Source: an uncultured Acidimicrobiales bacterium (GTDB lineage Bacteria; Actinomycetota; Acidimicrobiia; Acidimicrobiales; SZUA-35). Taken from it: 64,000 nt of DNA. Location: contig CALAJQ010000016.1 in NCBI GenBank assembly GCA_937922785.1, forward strand, positions 158,003-222,002. The letters are read 5' to 3'. The position numbers and the translations under genes are program-made. Shown here piece by piece: positions 34,698-44,077 of the stretch. The notes below the pieces were generated by a model. The model was not told the DNA's origin and searched no databases. It was given only the letters and a program-made list of their open reading frames with translations. The stretch's first letter is position 1. Every line of letters begins with the position of its first letter.

Positions 34698-36356
34698 GTG
34701 ACCAACTCACACACCAACGAACCCAAGCCCAACGAACCTAGCGAAACTTCTGGCGGTTCAGGAACATTCGAGACCCCGAGCCGACGGCGATTCTTGGCTG
34801 GCGGACTAGCGGCAGGAGCAATCCTTGGGGCTCCGACTGCCGTCGGTGCAGCTTCCCGGCGACGCCGTGACCGCGACGGACAACGTCCACCCCGACCCGA
34901 CAGATCAATCTCAACCTCGGTTGATGACGGCACTGGCTCGTTTGTGCGCATGTTTGACGGCCCACCGTTTGCCCAGCCAAGTGAACAACTGACTGTGGCA
35001 TTGATTGAGATAGGTAGGCCGGGCGGGATTATGGATGCCGGTGACCCGTTGGAAGTTGGACCAATTCGGCTGATTACCGAACCTGAGCTGAGCCCGAATA
35101 ACAGAGACAACCCAACCCACACTGCTGGCTCTACCTTTATCGGGCAGTTCTTGGACCACGACATCACCAGCGATGCTGGTTCAACTTTGGATGTTCCCCA
35201 GCCGGTTACAGCAAGTCGCAACCTCAGATCCGCTCGGTTCGACCTGGACAGTGTCTACGGCGGCGGCCCGTCAGTCTCGCCGCATCTCTATCACTCCGAT
35301 TCAAACCGCGATGGCCAGTTTCTCATTGAATCCGGTGGCCTGTTTGAAGATCTTCCCCGAGCCGCAGACGGTTCGGCAATAGTGGCCGAGGGCCGAAACG
35401 ACGAGAACCTCATCATCTCCGGTCTCCAAGTAGCTTTCCTGAAGTTCCACAACCAAGTGCTTTCCGAAGAAGTCAGAGGTCGTAGAGACCGACGAGGTTC
35501 CAGCCGTTTCGAACAAGCTCAACAGATTTGTCGGTGGCATTATCAGTGGCTAATCATGAACCAATTTCTGCCCCAGTACGTGGGCCAAGCCATGGTTGAT
35601 GACGTTCTGGCCAACGGCCGCCGTTGGTTCACCAGTGACATTGGCCGCATCCCGCTTGAGTTCCAAGGAGCCGCCTACCGTTTCGGCCACTCGATGATTA
35701 GACCGTCCTACCGAGCGAACCTCGCAGGAGACAACGGCGAACCATTCTTCGCATTTGTGTTCGACCGTGACGAGATGGGCAAAGCCGACCCGGACGACCT
35801 CACCGGCCGCGTTAGAGCACCACGGCGCTTCATCGGATGGCAGACGTTCTTCGATTTCGATGACGGCGAGGTAAAGCCGAACAAGCGCGTGGACACCTCG
35901 ATATCGACACCGATGTTCAATCTGCCAACCTCAACCATTTCCTCGCCAAGCGGTCAACCTCTAGGTCCACTTTCGCTGCCGACTCGGAACCTGTTGCGCC
36001 ATGTCACCTGGGCCCTACCGTCAGGTCAACATATTGCTAGTCAAATGAATGAGGCGGTGTTATCAGCTGGTGACCTGGCCGATATTGGCACTATCGATGC
36101 TGGTCTGGCGACGAGTACTCCGCTTTGGTTCTACATCCTGCGGGAGGCCGATGTAATCGCCGATGGTCTGCACCTGGGTCCTGTCGGTGGACGCATAGTG
36201 GCGGAGGTATTCATCGCCCTGCTTCAGAACGATCCAACCTCGTACTTAAACGCAGAACGTGCGTGGCGGCCGACGCTGGAGTCAAAGACAGGCGAGTTCA
36301 CAATGTCTGATCTCCTTACCGTTGCCGGAGTGGATCCGACATCGCGAGGTCAGTGA
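34698..36356 (+). CDS. Tat-exported heme peroxidase of the animal peroxidase-cyclooxygenase superfamily
   Basis: Twin-arginine signal SRRRFLAGGLAAGAILGAP. Distal-His motif FIGQFLDHDIT. RFGHSMIRP proximal region. Confidence 0.85.
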   Translation: MTNSHTNEPKPNEPSETSGGSGTFETPSRRRFLAGGLAAGAILGAPTAVGAASRRRRDRDGQRPPRPDRSISTSVDDGTGSFVRMFDGPPFAQPSEQLTVALIEIGRPGGIMDAGDPLEVGPIRLITEPELSPNNRDNPTHTAGSTFIGQFLDHDITSDAGSTLDVPQPVTASRNLRSARFDLDSVYGGGPSVSPHLYHSDSNRDGQFLIESGGLFEDLPRAADGSAIVAEGRNDENLIISGLQVAFLKFHNQVLSEEVRGRRDRRGSSRFEQAQQICRWHYQWLIMNQFLPQYVGQAMVDDVLANGRRWFTSDIGRIPLEFQGAAYRFGHSMIRPSYRANLAGDNGEPFFAFVFDRDEMGKADPDDLTGRVRAPRRFIGWQTFFDFDDGEVKPNKRVDTSISTPMFNLPTSTISSPSGQPLGPLSLPTRNLLRHVTWALPSGQHIASQMNEAVLSAGDLADIGTIDAGLATSTPLWFYILREADVIADGLHLGPVGGRIVAEVFIALLQNDPTSYLNAERAWRPTLESKTGEFTMSDLLTVAGVDPTSRGQ

Positions 36357-36386
36357 CCTAAGCGTTTACGTAGGCTCGGCCAGAGA

Positions 36387-36737
36387 CTAAAGAGCGTCGA
36401 TGATCTTAGAGCGTTTCTGCTGATACTCGGCCTTGGTTATTAGACCGTCGGTGTAGAGGTCAGTCAGGCGCTCGAGTGCAGCTTTGGCATCAGTGGTACC
36501 TGATCCGCCCCGAGACTGGCCCGCCGGTCTCCCTGATGATGACCCGGCCCCCGGCGTGCCGCCACCGGTCCGGATTGCCTTCCCGCGGTACATCAGGACT
36601 CGTTCGTCCTTGGGGCGAGGAGAGCCTGGTGCACCAGAGGAGCGCCGTGGCGTCTCAGCGTTGCGGTCGGTGAGCTCCTGGCTGTCCAGGGAAGCTCGCG
36701 CTTTGCGAAGCAGGTCGAGTTTGTTTTCTGAAGGCAT
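36387..36737 (-). CDS. SHOCT domain protein with a Gly/Ser/Arg-rich disordered region
   Basis: The C-terminal LERLTDLYTDGLITKAEYQQKRSKIIDAL matches the SHOCT short C-terminal domain. 35 nt downstream of amt on the same strand. Confidence 0.7.
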   Translation of the reverse strand: MPSENKLDLLRKARASLDSQELTDRNAETPRRSSGAPGSPRPKDERVLMYRGKAIRTGGGTPGAGSSSGRPAGQSRGGSGTTDAKAALERLTDLYTDGLITKAEYQQKRSKIIDAL

Positions 36738-36772
36738 GGTTTAGGTTCCGATCCGGCTATTGCCGGGTTGTC

Positions 36773-38236
36773 CTAGTCGACGTAGGTAAGTTCTTCGAGG
36801 AAGTCATCAAACTCGTCGCGTTCATCGGTTTGTACATCGGTGTAGTCGACGTAGTCATCGTTGTATGCAGGCGTTGCGTGCTCGGCAATGTCGAGGCCGA
36901 GCATTTCTTCGGTTGCTGTCACTCGAAGAACTCCGAGGCTCTTCATGATCAGGAACAGTGTTCCTGTTGCAAGTGCCGAGAAGCCAAAGATCGCAACTGT
37001 GCCTGTGATCTGGTTGATCAGCAGACTGGGTGTTCCGCCGTAAAGGAGCCCTGCGGGACCGTCGCCGCCCAGCGTTGCGTTAGGTGTAGCGAAGATGCCA
37101 ACAGCAATCGTTCCCCAAACACCGCACATGAGGTGCACGGGAATAGCGCCCACTGGGTCATCGATTCGAACCCGGTCAAGAAGTAGCACACCGTTGGTTG
37201 CGATCACTCCGGCGACAAAGCCGACGATGATTGCCCCGAAGTAGGAGATGTTGGCAGCGCCAGCAGTTACACCAACCAAGCCGCCAAGTACACCGTTACC
37301 AATAAGGGTTACATCAGGAGTTTTAAGTGTGAGCCATGAAGCGACAGTAGCGCCTAGGCCGCCAGCACCCGCACCCAGTGCGGTCATTGCAATGACCCAG
37401 CCTACTGATAGGTCCGCAGCCAATACGGAGCCACCGTTAAATCCAAACCACCCGATGAGGAGAATGAACACTCCGAGGATCGCTAGTGGAATGTTGTGGC
37501 CCGGAATCGGTAGGGAGTTTCCGTCTGTGTCGAAGCGCCCGATTCGTGGCCCAAGAATGAGGGCACCCATGAGAGCAGCGGCGCCACCTGTGACGTGAAC
37601 CACGCTAGATCCAGCGAAATCGATGAAGCCTAGCTGAGTGAGCCAGCCGCCACCCCAAACCCAACTCACAACAATTGGGTAGACCAGGGCTGAAATGACG
37701 AAGGCGTAGATGAAGTAGGCCTTGAACTGAACTCGTTCGGCTACCGCACCCGACACAATGGTTGCTGCCGCTGCGGCGAAACCAAGGTTGAACACCAGGT
37801 GAGTTGCCATTGTCAGGTTTGGCGCTACCCCTGCCGCTTCGGTTGGACCGGCCCAGAGCCAGGTGAAACCTACATAGTCGCCACCGCTAAAGGCTATGTG
37901 ATAGCCAACTAGCGAGAAACCGGTTGCACCAACCACGAAGTCCAAGAGGTTCTTAAGCATCATGTGGGCTGCGTTCTTGGCCCGAGTCAGGCCCGCTTCA
38001 ACCATGGCAAAGCCAGCCTGCATGAAGATAACGAGCGCTGCACAGATCAACACGAAAGCGTTGTCGACGAGCACACCGGGCGCCGTTGGATCAACCGTTG
38101 CTGCAGCGACCGGGGACGATGAAGCTAGAAGGACAACTGCGGACATAGCGCCCGCATATGCGATTTTACGTTTCATTCTGACTGGCTTTCGTTGTGAGCG
38201 AGATTGTGTGAGATGGGTAGGGCTTAGAGAGGACAT
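36773..38236 (-). CDS. amt: ammonium transporter (Amt family)
   Basis: FVLICAALVIFMQAGFAMVEAG, the twin-His region and about 11 TM helices. ATG 38236..38234 shares one base with the cvnD stop (TGATG). An alternative start at 38176 (MKRKIAYAG..., signal-peptide-like) is possible. Confidence 0.92.
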   Translation of the reverse strand: MSSLSPTHLTQSRSQRKPVRMKRKIAYAGAMSAVVLLASSSPVAAATVDPTAPGVLVDNAFVLICAALVIFMQAGFAMVEAGLTRAKNAAHMMLKNLLDFVVGATGFSLVGYHIAFSGGDYVGFTWLWAGPTEAAGVAPNLTMATHLVFNLGFAAAAATIVSGAVAERVQFKAYFIYAFVISALVYPIVVSWVWGGGWLTQLGFIDFAGSSVVHVTGGAAALMGALILGPRIGRFDTDGNSLPIPGHNIPLAILGVFILLIGWFGFNGGSVLAADLSVGWVIAMTALGAGAGGLGATVASWLTLKTPDVTLIGNGVLGGLVGVTAGAANISYFGAIIVGFVAGVIATNGVLLLDRVRIDDPVGAIPVHLMCGVWGTIAVGIFATPNATLGGDGPAGLLYGGTPSLLINQITGTVAIFGFSALATGTLFLIMKSLGVLRVTATEEMLGLDIAEHATPAYNDDYVDYTDVQTDERDEFDDFLEELTYVD

Positions 38237-38808
38237 CAGGCTTGACCTGCGTCGGCCATCATTCGGTTCAAGATGACATCGAATAGGTTGAGCAACACAC
38301 CCTTGACCGATTGACGGTCACGGGCATCGCAATGGATGACCTTGACTTCGGGTCGCAGCTGCAACGCAGCCGCTACTTCTTCGGGACTGTGAGATGTCTG
38401 TCCATTGAACGTGTTGAGAGCAACAACAAACGGCAAGTTGCGGGCTTCGAAATAGTCGACGGCGAAGAAGCTGTCCTCGAGCCGGCGAGAGTCGACAAGG
38501 ACCACGGCGCCCAGAGCACCATTCACCAAGTCATCCCACATGAAACCGAACCGATCTTGGCCGGGAGTCCCGAACAGGTAGAGGACCAGGTTGTTCTCGA
38601 TGGTGATTCGACCGAAATCCATAGCCACAGTGGTCGTGGTTTTGGTTTGCACTTTGGACGTGTCATCGATGCCTACGCTTGCTGCAGTCATTGACGCTTC
38701 TGTGCGAAGAGGGTCGATTTCTGAAACTGACCCTACGAGCGTTGTCTTTCCGACGCCGAAACCTCCGGCGACTACGAACTTGGCGGAAATGGGATTGGGA
38801 CTACTCAT
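38236..38808 (-). CDS. cvnD: conservon GTPase-like protein (ATP/GTP-binding, CvnD family)
   Basis: KFVVAGGFGVGKTTLVG P-loop, LFGTPGQDRF switch II, about 190 aa. Start at ATG 38808 (ATGA overlap with the cvnC stop). The 61-aa extension of the track ORF is a shadow of cvnC. Confidence 0.85.
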   Translation of the reverse strand: MSSPNPISAKFVVAGGFGVGKTTLVGSVSEIDPLRTEASMTAASVGIDDTSKVQTKTTTTVAMDFGRITIENNLVLYLFGTPGQDRFGFMWDDLVNGALGAVVLVDSRRLEDSFFAVDYFEARNLPFVVALNTFNGQTSHSPEEVAAALQLRPEVKVIHCDARDRQSVKGVLLNLFDVILNRMMADAGQA

Positions 38809-39164
38809 AGCGCTCTCACTCCAGCGATAAGTCGCTGAATCATGTTCAGGTCTTGCAGTTGATGGGTATCGATTGTCTGATGGGTCTTGAGATGGCCAAG
38901 GGAGATCAGGTCTCCGACAAGAACCTTGGCGGTCCCAATTGGGATTCGGAGGTGGGCTGAAACCTCGGCGATAGAGATAGCAGAGGTACACAGTGTCATT
39001 ACGCGGCCGGCTTCGAACCGAAGCCTTGAAGTGTCGCTACCGGTCTGTTCAACCATTGTTTCCATGCGCAGATCGCCAACCGAACTTCGCGTCCGTCCAG
39101 CTGTTACTAGGAAGGGTCGGACAAAGTCGTCTTCGCTTTCCATGAACACCTCATCATCAGCCAT
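38805..39164 (-). CDS. cvnC: DUF742 protein (CvnC family)
   Basis: VRPFLVTAGRTR motif and an HTH-like SIAEVSAHLRIPIGTAKVLVGDL. Confidence 0.85.
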   Translation of the reverse strand: MADDEVFMESEDDFVRPFLVTAGRTRSSVGDLRMETMVEQTGSDTSRLRFEAGRVMTLCTSAISIAEVSAHLRIPIGTAKVLVGDLISLGHLKTHQTIDTHQLQDLNMIQRLIAGVRAL

Positions 39165-39177
39165 CGTGGATCTCCGA

Positions 39178-39594
39178 CTAAACGCTTAGCGTGTTCTTGA
39201 GTTGGCTGATTAGGTCTGGGGTTAGCACCCGGCCCGCTCGCTCTGCGAACAGTGTCATCTCATATGCGACGGCGCCAATGTCGGTGTCCTTGCGAGCAAG
39301 CACGCCGAGTACTGACCCGAAAGCAATGTTGGCAATGAGCAAGTAGCTACGATCCATTTCGATCACGATGCGCTGTACGCCGTCTTCGGCAAAGCATCGG
39401 GCTGCACCAAGGGTGAGGCTGGCCAAGCCTGATGCGATAGCACCAAATTGGTCAGCAGTTTCAGTGGGTAGGCCGGCGGAGGCCGCAAGCTTGATTCCGT
39501 CTGCAGACACTGCGATAGCGTCTTCGACGCCTGAAGTGGCGCTAACGAAGTTATTCAGGAGAAAGGCGAACTGGTCGCCCCCGGATTGGCTCAT
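39178..39594 (-). CDS. cvnB: Roadblock/LC7 domain protein (CvnB family)
   Basis: 138 aa. AVSADGIKLA...IVIEMDRSYLLIANI pattern of Roadblock/LC7/MglB. ATGA overlap with the cvnA stop. Confidence 0.85.
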   Translation of the reverse strand: MSQSGGDQFAFLLNNFVSATSGVEDAIAVSADGIKLAASAGLPTETADQFGAIASGLASLTLGAARCFAEDGVQRIVIEMDRSYLLIANIAFGSVLGVLARKDTDIGAVAYEMTLFAERAGRVLTPDLISQLKNTLSV

Positions 39595-42029
39595 TGTGCT
39601 CTTCTTTCTGGGTGTTGATCATCGGTGCTGTCTTGGAGTCCCTTGGAGACTCCGGTGCTGAATGCCGACATCAGTGACGAGAATTGGCTGGCCTGAGCTT
39701 CAGTGCTTTCAGGTTGGCCCACAGGTTGTGGTGCGGCACCTGTCGGTGGAGCCACTAAGCCACCGGGGTTCCTTACCGGCAGCTGATTTGCCGGTGCTCC
39801 GCCTCGGGTCGGTAGGGGAGAATTGCTAAGGGTTTTTCCTGCAACCCGCTGAGCTGGCATACGAACAGGTAACTGTTGTTCGGGAGCAGCCTGCACTGGT
39901 TGTGCTGGCATGCGCACAGGTAACTGTTGTGCCGGGAATGCCTGAACCGGCTGAGCCGCCACCGGGGTGTCCCAACCTTGAATTGGGGGAGAAGTCAGCT
40001 CCTCGAACTCGGAGTCAATGTCGTGTTGCTGTTCGAGAGGGCTTGTCGCTGGCGCCTCGTCGAAGTCATGCTGGGTGTAGTCAAAGATCTGCGGTTCGGG
40101 CTGGACCTGAACTGGAGCAGCTGGCTCTTGGCTAACGGGAGGTTGAGCTGCTGGTGGTTCCTGCGCAACTTCGAGTTCTTCAAAGCGGGGTTCGGCAGCG
40201 GCCGCGGGCTGCAAGGGTTGGTTTGCCTCGGAGTCGAGCACGAGAATTTCTTGCGGTATCTCGATTCGTGCAACGGTTCCTTGGCGAGCGCCTGGCACGA
40301 GCTTCACCTTGATTTCGTGTCGTTCAGCCAAGCGGCCAACAACGAAGAGACCCAGTCGACGAGTGGGAGCTTGGTCGAGGGGAGGAGGACTGCTGATGCG
40401 TAGGTTGTTTTCGACAATGTCATCGTCGTCGAGACCGATGCCTTGATCGGTAACGCTCAGCAAGTAAACGCCCTGACCCATCTCACCATTGATGTGAACT
40501 GGCAGAGACGGATCTGAATAGGCAAGCGCATTCTCGATGAGCTCAGCGAGGAGGTGCGTCACGTCGGCAACAACTGAACCCTGGATGAAAATGGGGTCGA
40601 GCCAGGCGACTTCGACTCGCTTGTAATCCTCAACTTCAGCAATTGAACCGCGAACTGCGTTCTCAACCGAGATTGGTTTACTCCACTGACGAGGTGCCTG
40701 CGTGCCGGCTAGAACCAAGAGGCTTTCTGCGTTTCGACGCATTCTGGTAACCAGCTGATCTAAGGCGAAGAGAGACTCCAAGGTGTCAGGGTTAGCCTCG
40801 TCCTGCTCCAGTTCGGTAACCATTCCCAGCATTCGCTGCAGTAGCCGCTGGTTCCGGCGACCGAGGTTAATGAACATGTCGCTGACGTTTCGGCGACTAA
40901 TGGCCTGTTCGGTTGCGAGTGTGTGAGCAGTTGTTTGCATCCGGTTAAACGCATGCACCAGGTCGCCAATTTCATCGGAGGACTCGGTTGGAATCTGAGG
41001 TGGATCTGGCAACAGCTCGGCGCTTGATGTGGTTCTCAGCTTCTTCACCAATGCTGGAAGCTGAACGTTGGCGATGTGGTCTGCGCGGTCCAAAAGGCTC
41101 GTTAGTGGGCTTGTGATCGATCGGTAGATCACGAAGACCAGGCCGCCCAGAACCACCGCTCCGATGATGCCGAGCAAGCTGTAAAGCTGTCGTTGAGCGG
41201 TGCTGGATCGGGTGCCGTCAGCGGCAGCCTCGGTCAGATCTTGGTCTAGCTGAGCCAGCGTGGCGGACAAGCTGTCTCTGTTGTTAGTCAGGGCAGAGGT
41301 CATTTCCTGGGGTTCAACTGAGAAGGAACCATTGCGGAGGTCACTCACTGCCTGGTTTTCCAGGCTCCGGACTGCTAGGGCACTTTCGTCTGCCCGGATG
41401 GCTTCTAGGAGGCTACGGTCAGACCCCGAAGCCAGCTGGATGGCTTGAGCCTGGGCACGGTCGGCAAGCGCAAAGCTTGTGACAACAGAAGCGGTGTTCG
41501 GGGTGATCTGCAATTCCTCGGCGAAGTAGTTAACCCAAGCTTGTTCTCTCGCTTCGAACGCTTCGGATGTGAGGGTGGAAACAATCCAGCTGTTTAGAAG
41601 ATCTGCATCGGCGATGTCTGCTGCCCCGCCCTGGTTCTGAGCGAGGAGGCTGCTGTTGGCTTCAGAATAGAACTGTGCGGCCTGCCATGGTTCGGTGGTG
41701 GCCCGAGCCTGGTTGACAGCACTGTTAGTAGCACCAAGTTGGTCGGCACTAATCGTGGAGGCGAGGACCTCTAGTGCGGCCAGCTTGGAGTCGGTGGTGC
41801 TCTGCATCTCACTGATTTCAGCGTCACTGCTGGATCCAATGCGGGCCAATCGTTCAATCGCTATAGCCGTGGTTGCTTCGTTAATAGCAACGGTCTGAGC
41901 AACTCGGGCTTCACTTAATGCAGCAGCGGTTGCGTCAACGCTTTGAGATCTAAACCCGAGCGTAGCTATGGCGCCCAATGCCATGAGGGGCACTGCCATA
42001 AGCACTAACAGTTTCGACTTGATGCTCAC
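39591..42029 (-). CDS. cvnA: conservon sensor histidine-kinase-like protein (CvnA family) with a P/Q-rich C-terminal tail
   Basis: N-terminal TM, long helical extracytoplasmic region (NIT-like, not verifiable by eye), second TM plus HAMP, HATPase region (ELIENAL, VTDQGIGLDD, RRLGLFVVGRLAERH). The tail carries a 16-aa tandem duplication (QQLPVRMPAQ x2). Confidence 0.85.
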   Translation of the reverse strand: MSIKSKLLVLMAVPLMALGAIATLGFRSQSVDATAAALSEARVAQTVAINEATTAIAIERLARIGSSSDAEISEMQSTTDSKLAALEVLASTISADQLGATNSAVNQARATTEPWQAAQFYSEANSSLLAQNQGGAADIADADLLNSWIVSTLTSEAFEAREQAWVNYFAEELQITPNTASVVTSFALADRAQAQAIQLASGSDRSLLEAIRADESALAVRSLENQAVSDLRNGSFSVEPQEMTSALTNNRDSLSATLAQLDQDLTEAAADGTRSSTAQRQLYSLLGIIGAVVLGGLVFVIYRSITSPLTSLLDRADHIANVQLPALVKKLRTTSSAELLPDPPQIPTESSDEIGDLVHAFNRMQTTAHTLATEQAISRRNVSDMFINLGRRNQRLLQRMLGMVTELEQDEANPDTLESLFALDQLVTRMRRNAESLLVLAGTQAPRQWSKPISVENAVRGSIAEVEDYKRVEVAWLDPIFIQGSVVADVTHLLAELIENALAYSDPSLPVHINGEMGQGVYLLSVTDQGIGLDDDDIVENNLRISSPPPLDQAPTRRLGLFVVGRLAERHEIKVKLVPGARQGTVARIEIPQEILVLDSEANQPLQPAAAAEPRFEELEVAQEPPAAQPPVSQEPAAPVQVQPEPQIFDYTQHDFDEAPATSPLEQQHDIDSEFEELTSPPIQGWDTPVAAQPVQAFPAQQLPVRMPAQPVQAAPEQQLPVRMPAQRVAGKTLSNSPLPTRGGAPANQLPVRNPGGLVAPPTGAAPQPVGQPESTEAQASQFSSLMSAFSTGVSKGLQDSTDDQHPERRAQ

Positions 42030-42116
42030 AATTCACCTTTTCCCGCAACGCTCAGTTGGGCTCTTCGCTCCCGCTGTCGCCACATAATGTTCGGCGCATT
42101 TAGGAAGAACGTTTAG

Positions 42117-43598
42117 ATGTTTCTATGTGACAATTCGGTTGCCGATTGTTGCTCACAGCTCAAGTGGCAGGTACTCGGCTCCGATACATCTCGCACAGGC
42201 GAAACAGGCCCCCGTACCAGGCCAGCAAGGCGAGCGATGACCGAACAACTCAGCTACAGAGGCCAGCGAGGAATGATGCGCCAGCTGAAGGCTGGACTAC
42301 CGCTTGAGGCAGGGTTCGGATCCGGACATGAGCCTGGCGAACTAAGAGGGATTGACCAGCTCAGATCGCTATTGGAAGTGGCTATCGCTGACGCGCTAGA
42401 CAGAGAACATACGGTTCTTGTTTTCCGAGTTCAGCACGAGTCTTTTGCGTCGTCAGACGACGTCGATTTCTTCCAATACCTCCCACTTCACCCAGCACTC
42501 AAGGAACGACTCGAAGCAGTTGCGGTTGACATCCAGGTAATCGGCTCGGCCGCAGGTGGGCTGATTGGCTTCATCCCAGACCTTCGTCGTAGAACCGACG
42601 GTGAGGATTTGTTGAATCTAATCACGGCGGAGTTAGCCAGGCCAATAACAATCGACGGATTACCTGTGTTGCTCGGAGCTCACACTGGCGGAGCGATACT
42701 AAGTAATGACAATACGACGGTCGACGATTTGTTCGAGGCCAGCAAACTGGCGCTATGTGAGGCGGACGCATCCAGAGTCGCCGTGATGTTCCACCCCTAC
42801 CAACGGGTTCGTGACACTCGAGCGTCGGACCTTGCCAGGGATTTCCGTACTGCCCTGATCAACCGAGACCTGACCGTCGCCTATCAACCGGTCGTCAATC
42901 TTCAATCGGGAGCAATCGCCGGGATCAAGGCTTATGTGGTTTGGGACCGCCAAGGAGCGCTTGTGCCGAGCAATGAGGTCGTGGAGATTGCTGAACGGTG
43001 GGCTCTGTCAGTTCCGGTTGGTCAACACGTTCTCGGCGAGAGTTTCGCTGCAGTTGCCGGTTGGGTGCGGGTGGGACTGATCGAGTCGACCACTCTGTGG
43101 TTGCAAGTTCACCCCAGAGAAGTCCTAAACCCCGGCTTTGCGCCGGGAGTTACTCAGGCAATCAAGTTCGATCCCCGCGTCCAGGTAGGCATAGAGCTGA
43201 CAGAGAATCCCAGCGAAAACCAGCCATACACCCACAGCACGATTAGGTCTCTCGTAGCCCAAGGTGCACGTGCGTCACTTGGCGACCTTGGTAAAGGTCC
43301 GCTCGACTTGGCCGAAGCTCAGCAAATGCCGTTTACAGCCGGCCGGGTGAACTCAACGCTTACCCGCCAGCTCGGTTCGAGTGGAGCAGCGCTGCCGATC
43401 CTGAAACTGTTGTTGGAATTAGCTCAGGTTCTGAGCTGGGAAACAACCGTTGAGGGAATCGACACTGCTGATCAGCTCGAGGCCGCCCTGGCAGCCGGAG
43501 CTTCATTTGGCCAGGGAAACTACTTCTCAAGTCCGCTTTTGGCTGGTGACATGATCCAGCTACTACAAGAGGCTAAATCCGGCCGGTCGCTGCTTTAG
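42117..43598 (+). CDS. EAL-domain protein with a degenerate signature (KAY for EAL); N-terminal region unclear
   Basis: TVAYQPVVNLQSGAIAGIKAYVVW aligns with the YQPIV...G.EALxRW motif. Later motifs are partly kept (ELTEN, EGID, GQGNYF) or lost (GDLGKG for DDFGTG). The true start may be downstream (e.g. MTEQLSY at 42237). Confidence 0.7.
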   Translation: MFLCDNSVADCCSQLKWQVLGSDTSRTGETGPRTRPARRAMTEQLSYRGQRGMMRQLKAGLPLEAGFGSGHEPGELRGIDQLRSLLEVAIADALDREHTVLVFRVQHESFASSDDVDFFQYLPLHPALKERLEAVAVDIQVIGSAAGGLIGFIPDLRRRTDGEDLLNLITAELARPITIDGLPVLLGAHTGGAILSNDNTTVDDLFEASKLALCEADASRVAVMFHPYQRVRDTRASDLARDFRTALINRDLTVAYQPVVNLQSGAIAGIKAYVVWDRQGALVPSNEVVEIAERWALSVPVGQHVLGESFAAVAGWVRVGLIESTTLWLQVHPREVLNPGFAPGVTQAIKFDPRVQVGIELTENPSENQPYTHSTIRSLVAQGARASLGDLGKGPLDLAEAQQMPFTAGRVNSTLTRQLGSSGAALPILKLLLELAQVLSWETTVEGIDTADQLEAALAAGASFGQGNYFSSPLLAGDMIQLLQEAKSGRSLL

Positions 43599-44077
43599 GC
43601 GTTCACGTAGGCTCGGCCAATAAAGAAGGCCATTGTGGCCGATAGCAGGCCGACGGCGAGCAGTACCGCAAGCCATCGGCTGCTTCGGCCGGTGTCTCCG
43701 CGGAAGAACCAGCCACCAACGGCGAACACGCCCAGCGGTACTAGTCCGCCGATGTAGTGGATATAGAGCTGAAATATTCCTTGCCCCTGATCGAGCAGCT
43801 TGATTCCGATTAGTACTTGGGCAGCTAAAACCAGCGCAGCCAAACCCATGGCCAGCTGGGTGCGGCTACCGATTGGCCGGTTGTTGATTGCGTCAACTAC
43901 GACCAGGCCGGTGGCCAAAGTTAACGATGCCAAAACGAGCGCACCGAGGAGTAAGTGAACCGACGTGGAGACGATCAGGTTGTCTAAGACACCGTCGCCT
44001 AGATCTGAAGCTTGTCCGAAAATCATTTGCTGCGATTCATTTGTTGGCTGACCCGTTCGGTGAGATTGCGCTGCCAC
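43595..44077 (-). CDS. small integral membrane protein (hypothetical)
   Basis: Four hydrophobic helices. No recognisable family. Confidence 0.5.
   Translation of the reverse strand: MAAQSHRTGQPTNESQQMIFGQASDLGDGVLDNLIVSTSVHLLLGALVLASLTLATGLVVVDAINNRPIGSRTQLAMGLAALVLAAQVLIGIKLLDQGQGIFQLYIHYIGGLVPLGVFAVGGWFFRGDTGRSSRWLAVLLAVGLLSATMAFFIGRAYVNA

Follow-up and report, generated by a model that had tools for sequence, protein, structure and literature searches.

Conservons, or actinobacterial G-protein systems (AGPS), occur widely in Actinomycetota, Streptomyces and Mycobacterium among them, and the inputs that they sense are largely undefined. Among the described systems are Cvn9 and Cvn8 of S. 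coelicolor and the mycobacterial Mfp system, and accessories encoded in the same operon are a known theme (the P450 CvnE, the GAF protein CvnF, and MfpA). In surveys of these systems, only CvnE and CvnF are given as accessories, and Amt, SHOCT, and degenerate EAL proteins are not mentioned (PMC13343842, PMC13621833). Here, we analyzed a conservon that is linked to the gene of an ammonium channel (Amt) and to that of a small SHOCT-domain protein, hereafter called the partner. It lies in a stretch of 64,000 nucleotides from an uncultured Acidimicrobiales bacterium (contig CALAJQ010000016.1, positions 158,003 to 222,002); this whole stretch is referred to as the window.

In the eukaryotic lysosome, Ragulator-Rag docks on SLC38A9, a nutrient transporter and sensor. 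Like MglA/MglB, it resembles the conservon in combining Roadblock-fold regulators with a small GTPase; this is an analogy only, and we claim no homology beyond the folds. The E. coli channel AmtB is regulated by the PII protein GlnK, the T-loop tip of which is Y46-R47-G48, with Arg47 at the tip blocking the AmtB pore (PMC4274968). Sensor Amts drive fused transducers, namely a kinase in Ks-Amt5 and a HAMP-diguanylate cyclase in Sd-Amt1 (PMC5764959, PMC11152129).

The window locus has the same four core genes as the described conservons, in the same order and with overlapping cvnA and cvnB, and its host likewise belongs to the Actinomycetota. It differs from them in its accessories, which are Amt, a partner carrying a Tyr-Arg-Gly (YRG) motif and a SHOCT domain, and a degenerate EAL protein, usually encoded upstream of cvnA, and in a CvnA sensor that is not of the NIT type. 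We found no literature joining "conservon" with "ammonium transporter," and both the conservon accessory set and the Amt partner are new. The genes form a conserved, clade-restricted unit of uncultured marine-type Acidimicrobiales. We lean, by a modest degree, toward the view that they work as one ammonium-linked module, in which Amt and the partner would provide the input to CvnA and the CvnD switch.

Organization of the locus

The window encodes a HAMP-HATPase_c membrane protein, CvnA, followed by CvnB, CvnC, and CvnD in this order, which is the conservon core. A first-pass annotation had listed six co-directional open reading frames (ORFs), cvnA-B-C-D-amt-SHOCT; all six lie on the minus strand, at the coordinates given there, and Pfam bore out the domains. 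The features are listed below (values follow the names of the Pfam families and, for TIGR00836, the NCBIfam family).

42029-39591, minus strand: cvnA, 812 amino acids (aa); HAMP 5.5e-8, HATPase_c 1.4e-9
39594-39178, minus strand: cvnB, MglB-type Roadblock/LC7 protein; Robl_LC7 1.2e-15; its ATG overlaps the cvnA stop (ATGA)
39164-38805, minus strand: cvnC; DUF742 3e-27
38808-38236, minus strand: cvnD, small P-loop GTPase; ATP_bind_1 1.2e-30
38177-38235, minus strand: cvnD-amt spacer of 59 nucleotides (nt), given the likely amt start at 38176
38236-36773, minus strand: full amt ORF, with the likely coding sequence at 36773-38176; Ammonium_transp PF00909 3.4e-113, TIGR00836 7.6e-122
36776-36871, minus strand: clade-specific C-terminal extension of Amt, PAYNDDYVDY followed by an acidic tail
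36737-36387, minus strand: SHOCT partner gene; SHOCT 1.4e-6
36582-36590, minus strand: partner codons Tyr50-Arg51-Gly52
42117-43598, plus strand: degenerate EAL gene, divergent from cvnA; EAL 4.8e-35

The junctions, re-read in the window, are as first described: ATGA at 39591-39594, a 13-nt gap, ATGA at 38805-38808, TGATG at 38234-38238, and 35 nt between amt and the SHOCT gene. The intergenic distances within the conservon are hence -4 nt (cvnA/B), +13 nt (cvnB/C), and -4 nt (cvnC/D). The cvnD-amt junction was found on three independently assembled contigs (L241 to L243) and is therefore no chimera or assembly artifact. The GC content of the window is about 57%, and the nearest relatives of every gene are found in metagenome-assembled genomes (MAGs) of uncultured Acidimicrobiales, with best identities of up to 86% for CvnD and up to 88% for CvnB.

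Conservation of the conservon-Amt-SHOCT linkage

We surveyed 80 loci around the closest CvnD homologs in GTDB species representatives and annotated them with the window proteins. An Amt 63 to 75% identical to that of the window, co-directional with the conservon, was encoded in 12 of these loci. Around the closest cvnD orthologs, every locus with sufficient flank had amt and the SHOCT partner in the same orientation, and metagenomic contexts agreed with this. Overall, the same Amt lineage, the partner, and a conservon are found together in no fewer than 22 distinct loci, drawn from Acidimicrobiales MAGs and metagenomes of 57 to 72% GC. Among the MAGs with the module are CALAJV01, CALEWY01, CALHFG01, CAKZXA01, CAYGQE01, JAWSVN01, CAYTUB01, CAZLWE01, JAHDDK01, CAZBTI01, CAZMYN01, JAHDEJ01, and CAKZVC01. 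The linkage noticed in the window is thus no oddity of one genome but recurs across the clade in three gene orders, and because it has been kept through all three, we argue for selection. The orthologous conservon loci without amt all end at a contig edge just upstream of cvnA, and in one MAG, the amt-SHOCT pair stands at the end of a separate contig (L001, with L082). No Amt was found at distant conservon paralogs with full flanks (L097 to L099 and most of L100 to L160), and of the loci gathered around other Amts, about 158 from many phyla, none had a conservon within 10 kb. Conservon-Amt adjacency is far above chance. The PEP (phosphoenolpyruvate) carboxylase of syntenic loci is only about 55% identical, indicating that the module clade is deep.

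In the prevailing order, amt-SHOCT-cvnA-B-C-D, the gap before the partner gene measures 5 to 166 nt (mostly 28 to 78 nt) and the gap before cvnA 12 to 142 nt (12 to 43 nt in most type I loci). The overlap of -4 between cvnA and cvnB is kept in nearly all orthologous loci. In the second order, an EAL gene on either strand lies between the partner gene and cvnA. The third order is that of the window, cvnABCD-amt-SHOCT, with the EAL gene divergent from cvnA and amt-SHOCT after cvnD, and it is a rare permutation. Outside the window's own population, amt follows cvnD only in L244, there behind a paralogous conservon. In this 72%-GC genome (positions 5129-16027 of L244, on a 3.6-Mb contig), two conservons flank amt-SHOCT. 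The upstream one, a paralog, directly precedes amt, and its CvnA is short (646 aa) and sensor-less; the ortholog of the window conservon is the downstream one, which lies behind an EAL gene.

Several other observations were made in the surveyed loci. L245 (10253-13201) and L246 (10346-13300) encode an identical partner protein; cvnA is intact in L246 (984 aa) and is replaced in L245 by short and opposite-strand gene calls, the sign of either a disrupted cvnA or an assembly error. A second, different proximity of a conservon and an Amt occurs in another actinobacterial lineage (L142, 10799-12440; L149, 10599-12210). There, a convergent, canonical glnK-amt pair comes after a conservon whose CvnD is 67% identical, at a distance of a few hundred bases at most, and the Amt is only 35% identical to the window Amt. 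Four loci with amt-first operons (L090, L095, L124, and L152) have a conserved palindrome, AAT(A/G)GGTC-N6-(G/A)ACCATCG, about 100 to 110 nt upstream of amt, which may be the operator of some regulator and which we take to be unlike the GlnR and AmtR consensus sequences. Inspection by eye for GlnR-box-like motifs upstream of amt gave no consistent match.

Start of amt and the cvnD-amt junction

The first-pass annotation had read the TGATG overlap as a start of amt and had proposed that the channel is translationally coupled to the GTPase. However, the N termini of the Amt orthologs, including the closest one (L001), align at a signal-peptide methionine, MK(R/K)K, which corresponds to Met21 of the window ORF (MKRK..., ATG 38176). 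Three orthologs are without any upstream in-frame start, and the use of ATG 38236 would add a 20-codon N-terminal extension to Amt. Judged by this alignment, ATG 38236 is probably not the true start, and ATG 38176 is likelier. Since the orthologs begin at the signal-peptide methionine, the window would have the 59-nt spacer between cvnD and amt instead of an overlap. The coupling is not conserved: the usual order is amt-SHOCT-cvnA, that of the window is rare, and, with the overlapping ATG in doubt as well, translational coupling of cvnD and amt is no property of the system.

A consensus scan of the spacer found no terminator and no sigma-70-type promoter, which is weak evidence and uninformative for actinobacterial promoters. 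Over positions 35800-42600, the scan returned 0 promoter-like sites and 6 terminator-like sites versus 5.9 expected, none of them intergenic. When the spacer was compared with the sequence that natively precedes amt in the closest relative, homology was limited to the start-codon region. From the gene orders, the amt-SHOCT cassette appears to have left its usual site upstream of cvnA and, in the window, sits just downstream of cvnD. It is probably still cotranscribed with the conservon, since it is co-directional with the cvn genes and no terminator was detectable.

Absence of glnK and properties of the SHOCT partner

No PII gene was found in the 64-kb window by tblastn with E. coli GlnK and GlnB, and glnA, glnD, glnE, and PII genes were absent among 30 neighboring ORFs analyzed with Pfam. 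This bears out the earlier remark that no PII gene follows the window amt. The anticorrelation with glnK that had been suggested as a check was also seen: a PII gene lay within 10 kb of amt in 0 of 14 clade loci, versus within 700 bp in 106 of the 133 non-clade Amt loci with sufficient flank. A contig scan with an Acidimicrobiia-type GlnK query detected PII in other Acidimicrobiia, and among the matches listed (80 loci), none came from a module-bearing MAG.

The place directly after amt is held by the partner. A profile search of 5.8 billion proteins delimited a partner family of about 90 clusters, beyond which the score dropped sharply. In our full set of 240 loci, the hidden Markov model of the family matched at 17 loci, always directly after a clade amt, and nowhere else. 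Seven contexts of diverse family members showed Amt, then the partner, then a CvnA or EAL gene, and in every context with enough sequence, the family was never without an adjoining conservon.

The partner comprises an N-terminal helix, a basic, Gly-rich linker with an invariant MYRGxP(V/I), and a C-terminal SHOCT helical hairpin. Outside the SHOCT domain, Tyr50-Arg51-Gly52 is invariant in both the 17- and the 47-member alignments, in the context (M/L)YRGxP(V/I). The only other invariant residues there are Gly63, again in both alignments, and Pro62, in the 47-member set, which form a Pro-Gly pair. The segment from YRG to the SHOCT domain is basic, with a median charge of +5. An AlphaFold2 model based on the 47-sequence alignment predicted a helix at residues 3-25, disordered Gly-rich linkers, a beta-hairpin at 47-56, and helices at 82-96 and 102-115. 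The C-terminal helical hairpin was predicted with confidence, and Arg51-Gly52 was placed at the turn of the beta-hairpin with a predicted local distance difference test score (pLDDT) of about 63 to 71.

The resemblance to AmtB-GlnK lies in an amt followed by the gene of a small cytoplasmic protein and in the position of YRG at a predicted beta-hairpin tip, like the AmtB-plugging Arg47 where the T-loop has its tip. YRG is found in the T-loops of 138 of the 148 PII genes in the gathered loci, and 13 of them have YRGxP[VIL]. Unlike GlnK, the partner is not a PII protein: in its predicted fold, a helix and a disordered linker precede a hairpin and the helical hairpin of SHOCT, and it has no recognizable ATP/2-oxoglutarate site. 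Pfam gave SHOCT only and no match to PF00543, the AlphaFold2 model has no ferredoxin-like core, and only the YRG tripeptide is shared. Natural Amt-PII fusions do exist in several of the non-clade loci; some Clostridia-type Amts have a linker of about 50 to 60 aa, then a complete GlnK-like domain with the T-loop YYRGxP(I/L).

In the first-pass annotation, it was the Roadblock/GTPase pair that was thought to take the place of GlnK. Nothing specific points there, and neither CvnB nor CvnD showed a feature that faces Amt. On the evidence of a short motif and a model of moderate confidence, the SHOCT partner is a better candidate for this place than the Roadblock protein or the GTPase, because it always stands directly after amt, as glnK does, and has an invariant Tyr-Arg-Gly on the predicted hairpin tip. 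The partner was previously undescribed, and we found no literature linking SHOCT to ammonium transport.

The ammonium channel

The pore of the window Amt is intact, with W, S, F, F, H, and H aligning with W139, S225, F98, F221, H169, and H323 of Sd-Amt1, the residues of the Trp/Ser vestibule, the Phe gate, and the twin His (PMC11152129). Also present, numbered from Met21, are the N1/N2 ligands and the Asn constriction (Q53, F56, E60, N76, D79, T139, S142, and N294) as defined by Pfluger et al. 2024 (PMC11152129). By sequence, this signature puts the window Amt in cluster 2 of that study, which is no demonstration of a sensor role. As a receptor marker, the signature was rejected: when the same nine positions were scored in 203 Amts, it was identical in 122 GlnK-adjacent ones.

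The sensor Amts Sd-Amt1 and Ks-Amt5 are the closest solved structures (228 and 233 bits, respectively, versus 192 bits for AmtB), and they share with the window Amt the full N1/N2 set, the Asn constriction, and the lack of a glnK alongside. The associated transducers are also alike in kind, a kinase-like HAMP protein and a c-di-GMP (cyclic di-GMP)-type domain. In contrast to the sensor Amts, the transducers of the module are separate genes and unfused, and the N1/N2 signature occurs in many GlnK-linked Amts as well. No transducer domain is fused to the window Amt, which carries a signal peptide and ends 34 residues past the conserved His in an acidic tail. This tail sets the clade apart: PAYN[DE][DE]xV[DE]Y was present in 16 of 16 clade Amts and in 0 of 188 others, and the clade tail has a median length of 32 aa and a charge of -11, versus 14 aa and -1 in other Amts.

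Conservon proteins and the degenerate EAL protein

CvnA has a first transmembrane segment (residues 1-19), an extracytoplasmic helical region of about 255 aa, a second transmembrane segment (280-298), HAMP and HATPase_c domains, and a long Pro/Gln-rich tail. The GTG start of cvnA is backed by I3 and L7, which are invariant in 13 orthologs. A NIT sensor, which is typical of the family though not universal and was one of the domains that the first-pass annotation had in mind for the extracytoplasmic region, was not matched in any of the 13 orthologs at E<=1; weak matches to 4HB_MCP_1 were obtained in 7 of the 13. Other Acidimicrobiia CvnAs (L098 to L158) carried dCache_1 (6 of 18), NIT (3), MCP-like PDC (3), or 4HB_MCP (2). 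By their domain matches, the CvnA sensors of Acidimicrobiia are modular and broader than the NIT-or-nothing picture derived from Streptomyces.

CvnD has the P-loop GGFGVGKTT, the G3 motif GTPGQ, and LNTFNG at the position equivalent to G4. In a set of 83 homologs, TVAMDFG and FGTPGQ.RF were invariant in those covering them, and the window CvnD matches both. The P-loop and GTPGQ, already called intact, thus agree with family-invariant positions, and the nucleotide-binding motifs of CvnD are intact as judged by alignment. LNTFNG had been singled out as odd, and a degenerate G4 was considered and rejected: the family norm in the 83 sequences is N-x-F-[D/G/N/E]-G, with Asp, Asn, and Glu alternating even among module members. 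A sequence search of the PDB with CvnD gave spurious or weak Ras-family matches only.

In many loci, the degenerate EAL protein joins the module as its seventh member. Its orthologs are encoded between SHOCT and cvnA in about 10 loci (L082, L084 to L089, L096, L161, and L244). Compared with TBD1265, the catalytic motifs of the window protein are degenerate, with EAL changed to KAY, N to Q, DDFGTG to GDLGKG, and EGIE to EGID; for the catalytic set E of EAL, N, E-x-x-E, DDFGTG, K, and EGVE, the window reads KAY, Q, GDLGKG, R/N, and EGID. The orthologs share GDxGxG and mostly ELSP. These changes and the recurrence of the orthologs inside the module suggest that the protein is a c-di-GMP receptor or adaptor rather than a phosphodiesterase. 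In L085 and L086, EAL genes that are unrelated to it lie downstream of cvnD and have intact catalytic residues. The N-terminal half of the EAL protein resembles a degenerate GGDEF region.

A possible ammonium-linked signaling module

As observed, the module has a defined set of components that strictly co-occur in tightly spaced operons with no adjacent PII gene. In the mechanism that we propose, the basic partner would dock on the Amt trimer from the cytoplasmic side, where it would meet the acidic C-terminal tail, with its Tyr-Arg-Gly hairpin perhaps at the pore exit, as is the T-loop of GlnK. Ammonium occupancy or flux would be relayed to the HAMP-HATPase protein CvnA, which, via CvnB (like a GTPase-activating protein) and CvnC (like a guanine nucleotide exchange factor), would determine the nucleotide state of CvnD. 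A downstream or c-di-GMP-linked role would be likely for the degenerate EAL protein. For the docking, we count the acidic Amt tail found only in the clade, facing a basic partner linker, and the invariant YRG and PG of the partner, with YRG on the predicted hairpin tip and common in the T-loops of PII. Analogy suggests that the signal runs from Amt and the partner toward the conservon, because CvnE and CvnF, which occur together with sensor-less CvnAs, exert their action on CvnA at the input (PMC13343842), and because the sensor Amts drive a kinase or a HAMP-diguanylate cyclase. The sensor-less CvnA of the L244 conservon that directly precedes amt also counts for this direction. More specifically, the module may be a split ammonium receptor in which Amt senses, and the GlnK-like YRG hairpin of the non-PII partner enters or adjoins the pore exit and couples the channel to the G-protein cascade; this version is a tentative one.

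Several points weigh against such a module. A single lineage supplied all of its members, so that the loci lack phylogenetic independence. YRG is just a tripeptide, and the hairpin that bears it was predicted with the moderate confidence given above. Even in GlnK, the R47A variant still binds AmtB (PMC4274968). The N1/N2 signature, being common to GlnK-adjacent Amts, does not mark a receptor. The published accessories accompany sensor-less CvnAs (PMC13343842), and the module CvnA keeps its extracytoplasmic domain of about 255 aa and may therefore have a ligand of its own. Finally, the target of the mycobacterial conservon GTPase MfpB is MfpA, which the last gene of the operon encodes, and this is the opposite direction (PMC11343762, PMC13015309).

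This last precedent favors a different reading, in which the channel would be the output of an upstream conservon, CvnD/CvnB gating Amt in the stead of GlnK, either alone or through the SHOCT protein. The lack of an adjacent glnK in every clade locus tested and the position of amt directly after cvnD in the window and L244 fit it as well. In most loci, however, amt comes first and cvnD last, about 4 kb apart, CvnB and CvnD lack an evident Amt-facing feature, the glnK position is held by the partner, and amt probably does not begin at the TGATG overlap. We consider this reading unlikely. It bears on the earlier idea that nitrogen is the input of this conservon: the nitrogen connection itself is reasonable, given the clade-wide linkage and the lack of adjacent glnK, whereas gating of the channel by the Roadblock protein and the GTPase is not supported.

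Alternatively, Amt and the partner could form an uptake unit of their own, in which the partner serves as a plug in the manner of GlnK, and the conservon could be a regulator independent of it, the two merely sharing a nitrogen-responsive operon or neighborhood without contact. The intact pore agrees with this, as does the amt-partner pair, which stays joined and moves as a cassette. In some loci, an EAL gene on the opposite strand separates the partner gene from cvnA, and these loci can therefore not be single transcripts. Co-regulation alone would not explain why the partner family always has an adjoining conservon where enough sequence is available, nor why the linkage persists over three rearrangements and from 57% to 72% GC, and it too seems improbable to us. 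Chance juxtaposition or an assembly artifact in one genome could appeal only to the exact cvnD-amt order, which was seen only in the population of the window itself and in L244, where the conservon is a paralog; it is refuted by the three independent assemblies of the junction and by the association in at least 22 loci. We retain the ammonium-linked module, with Amt and the partner at the input, as our working model.

Other features of the window

The neighboring genes encode, by Pfam, a PEP carboxylase, an SDR, a haem-peroxidase-like protein, an EAL protein, PutA, kynureninase, and others, and an Rfam scan of the whole window gave zero matches. The haem-peroxidase-like gene (34698-36356, plus strand) is convergent with the SHOCT gene across a 30-nt gap, and its 552-aa product contains an animal-haem-peroxidase domain (PF03098, 2.4e-13), a family that is unusual in an actinobacterium. 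On the other side of the locus, a putative 160-aa ORF (43595-44077, minus strand) with three predicted transmembrane segments and no Pfam match overlaps the stop of the EAL gene and is co-directional with the conservon.

Implications

With its conservon tied so firmly to an ammonium channel, this lineage provides a concrete, testable input for conservons. The components of the module are small enough for heterologous expression, so that the hypothesis can be tested despite the uncultured hosts. The conserved small protein at the position of glnK, together with the matching acidic tail of Amt, suggests a control or read-out of Amt that is independent of GlnK. If the split receptor were true, it would be the first defined physiological input of a conservon, and the partner would represent a new class of Amt regulators standing in for GlnK.

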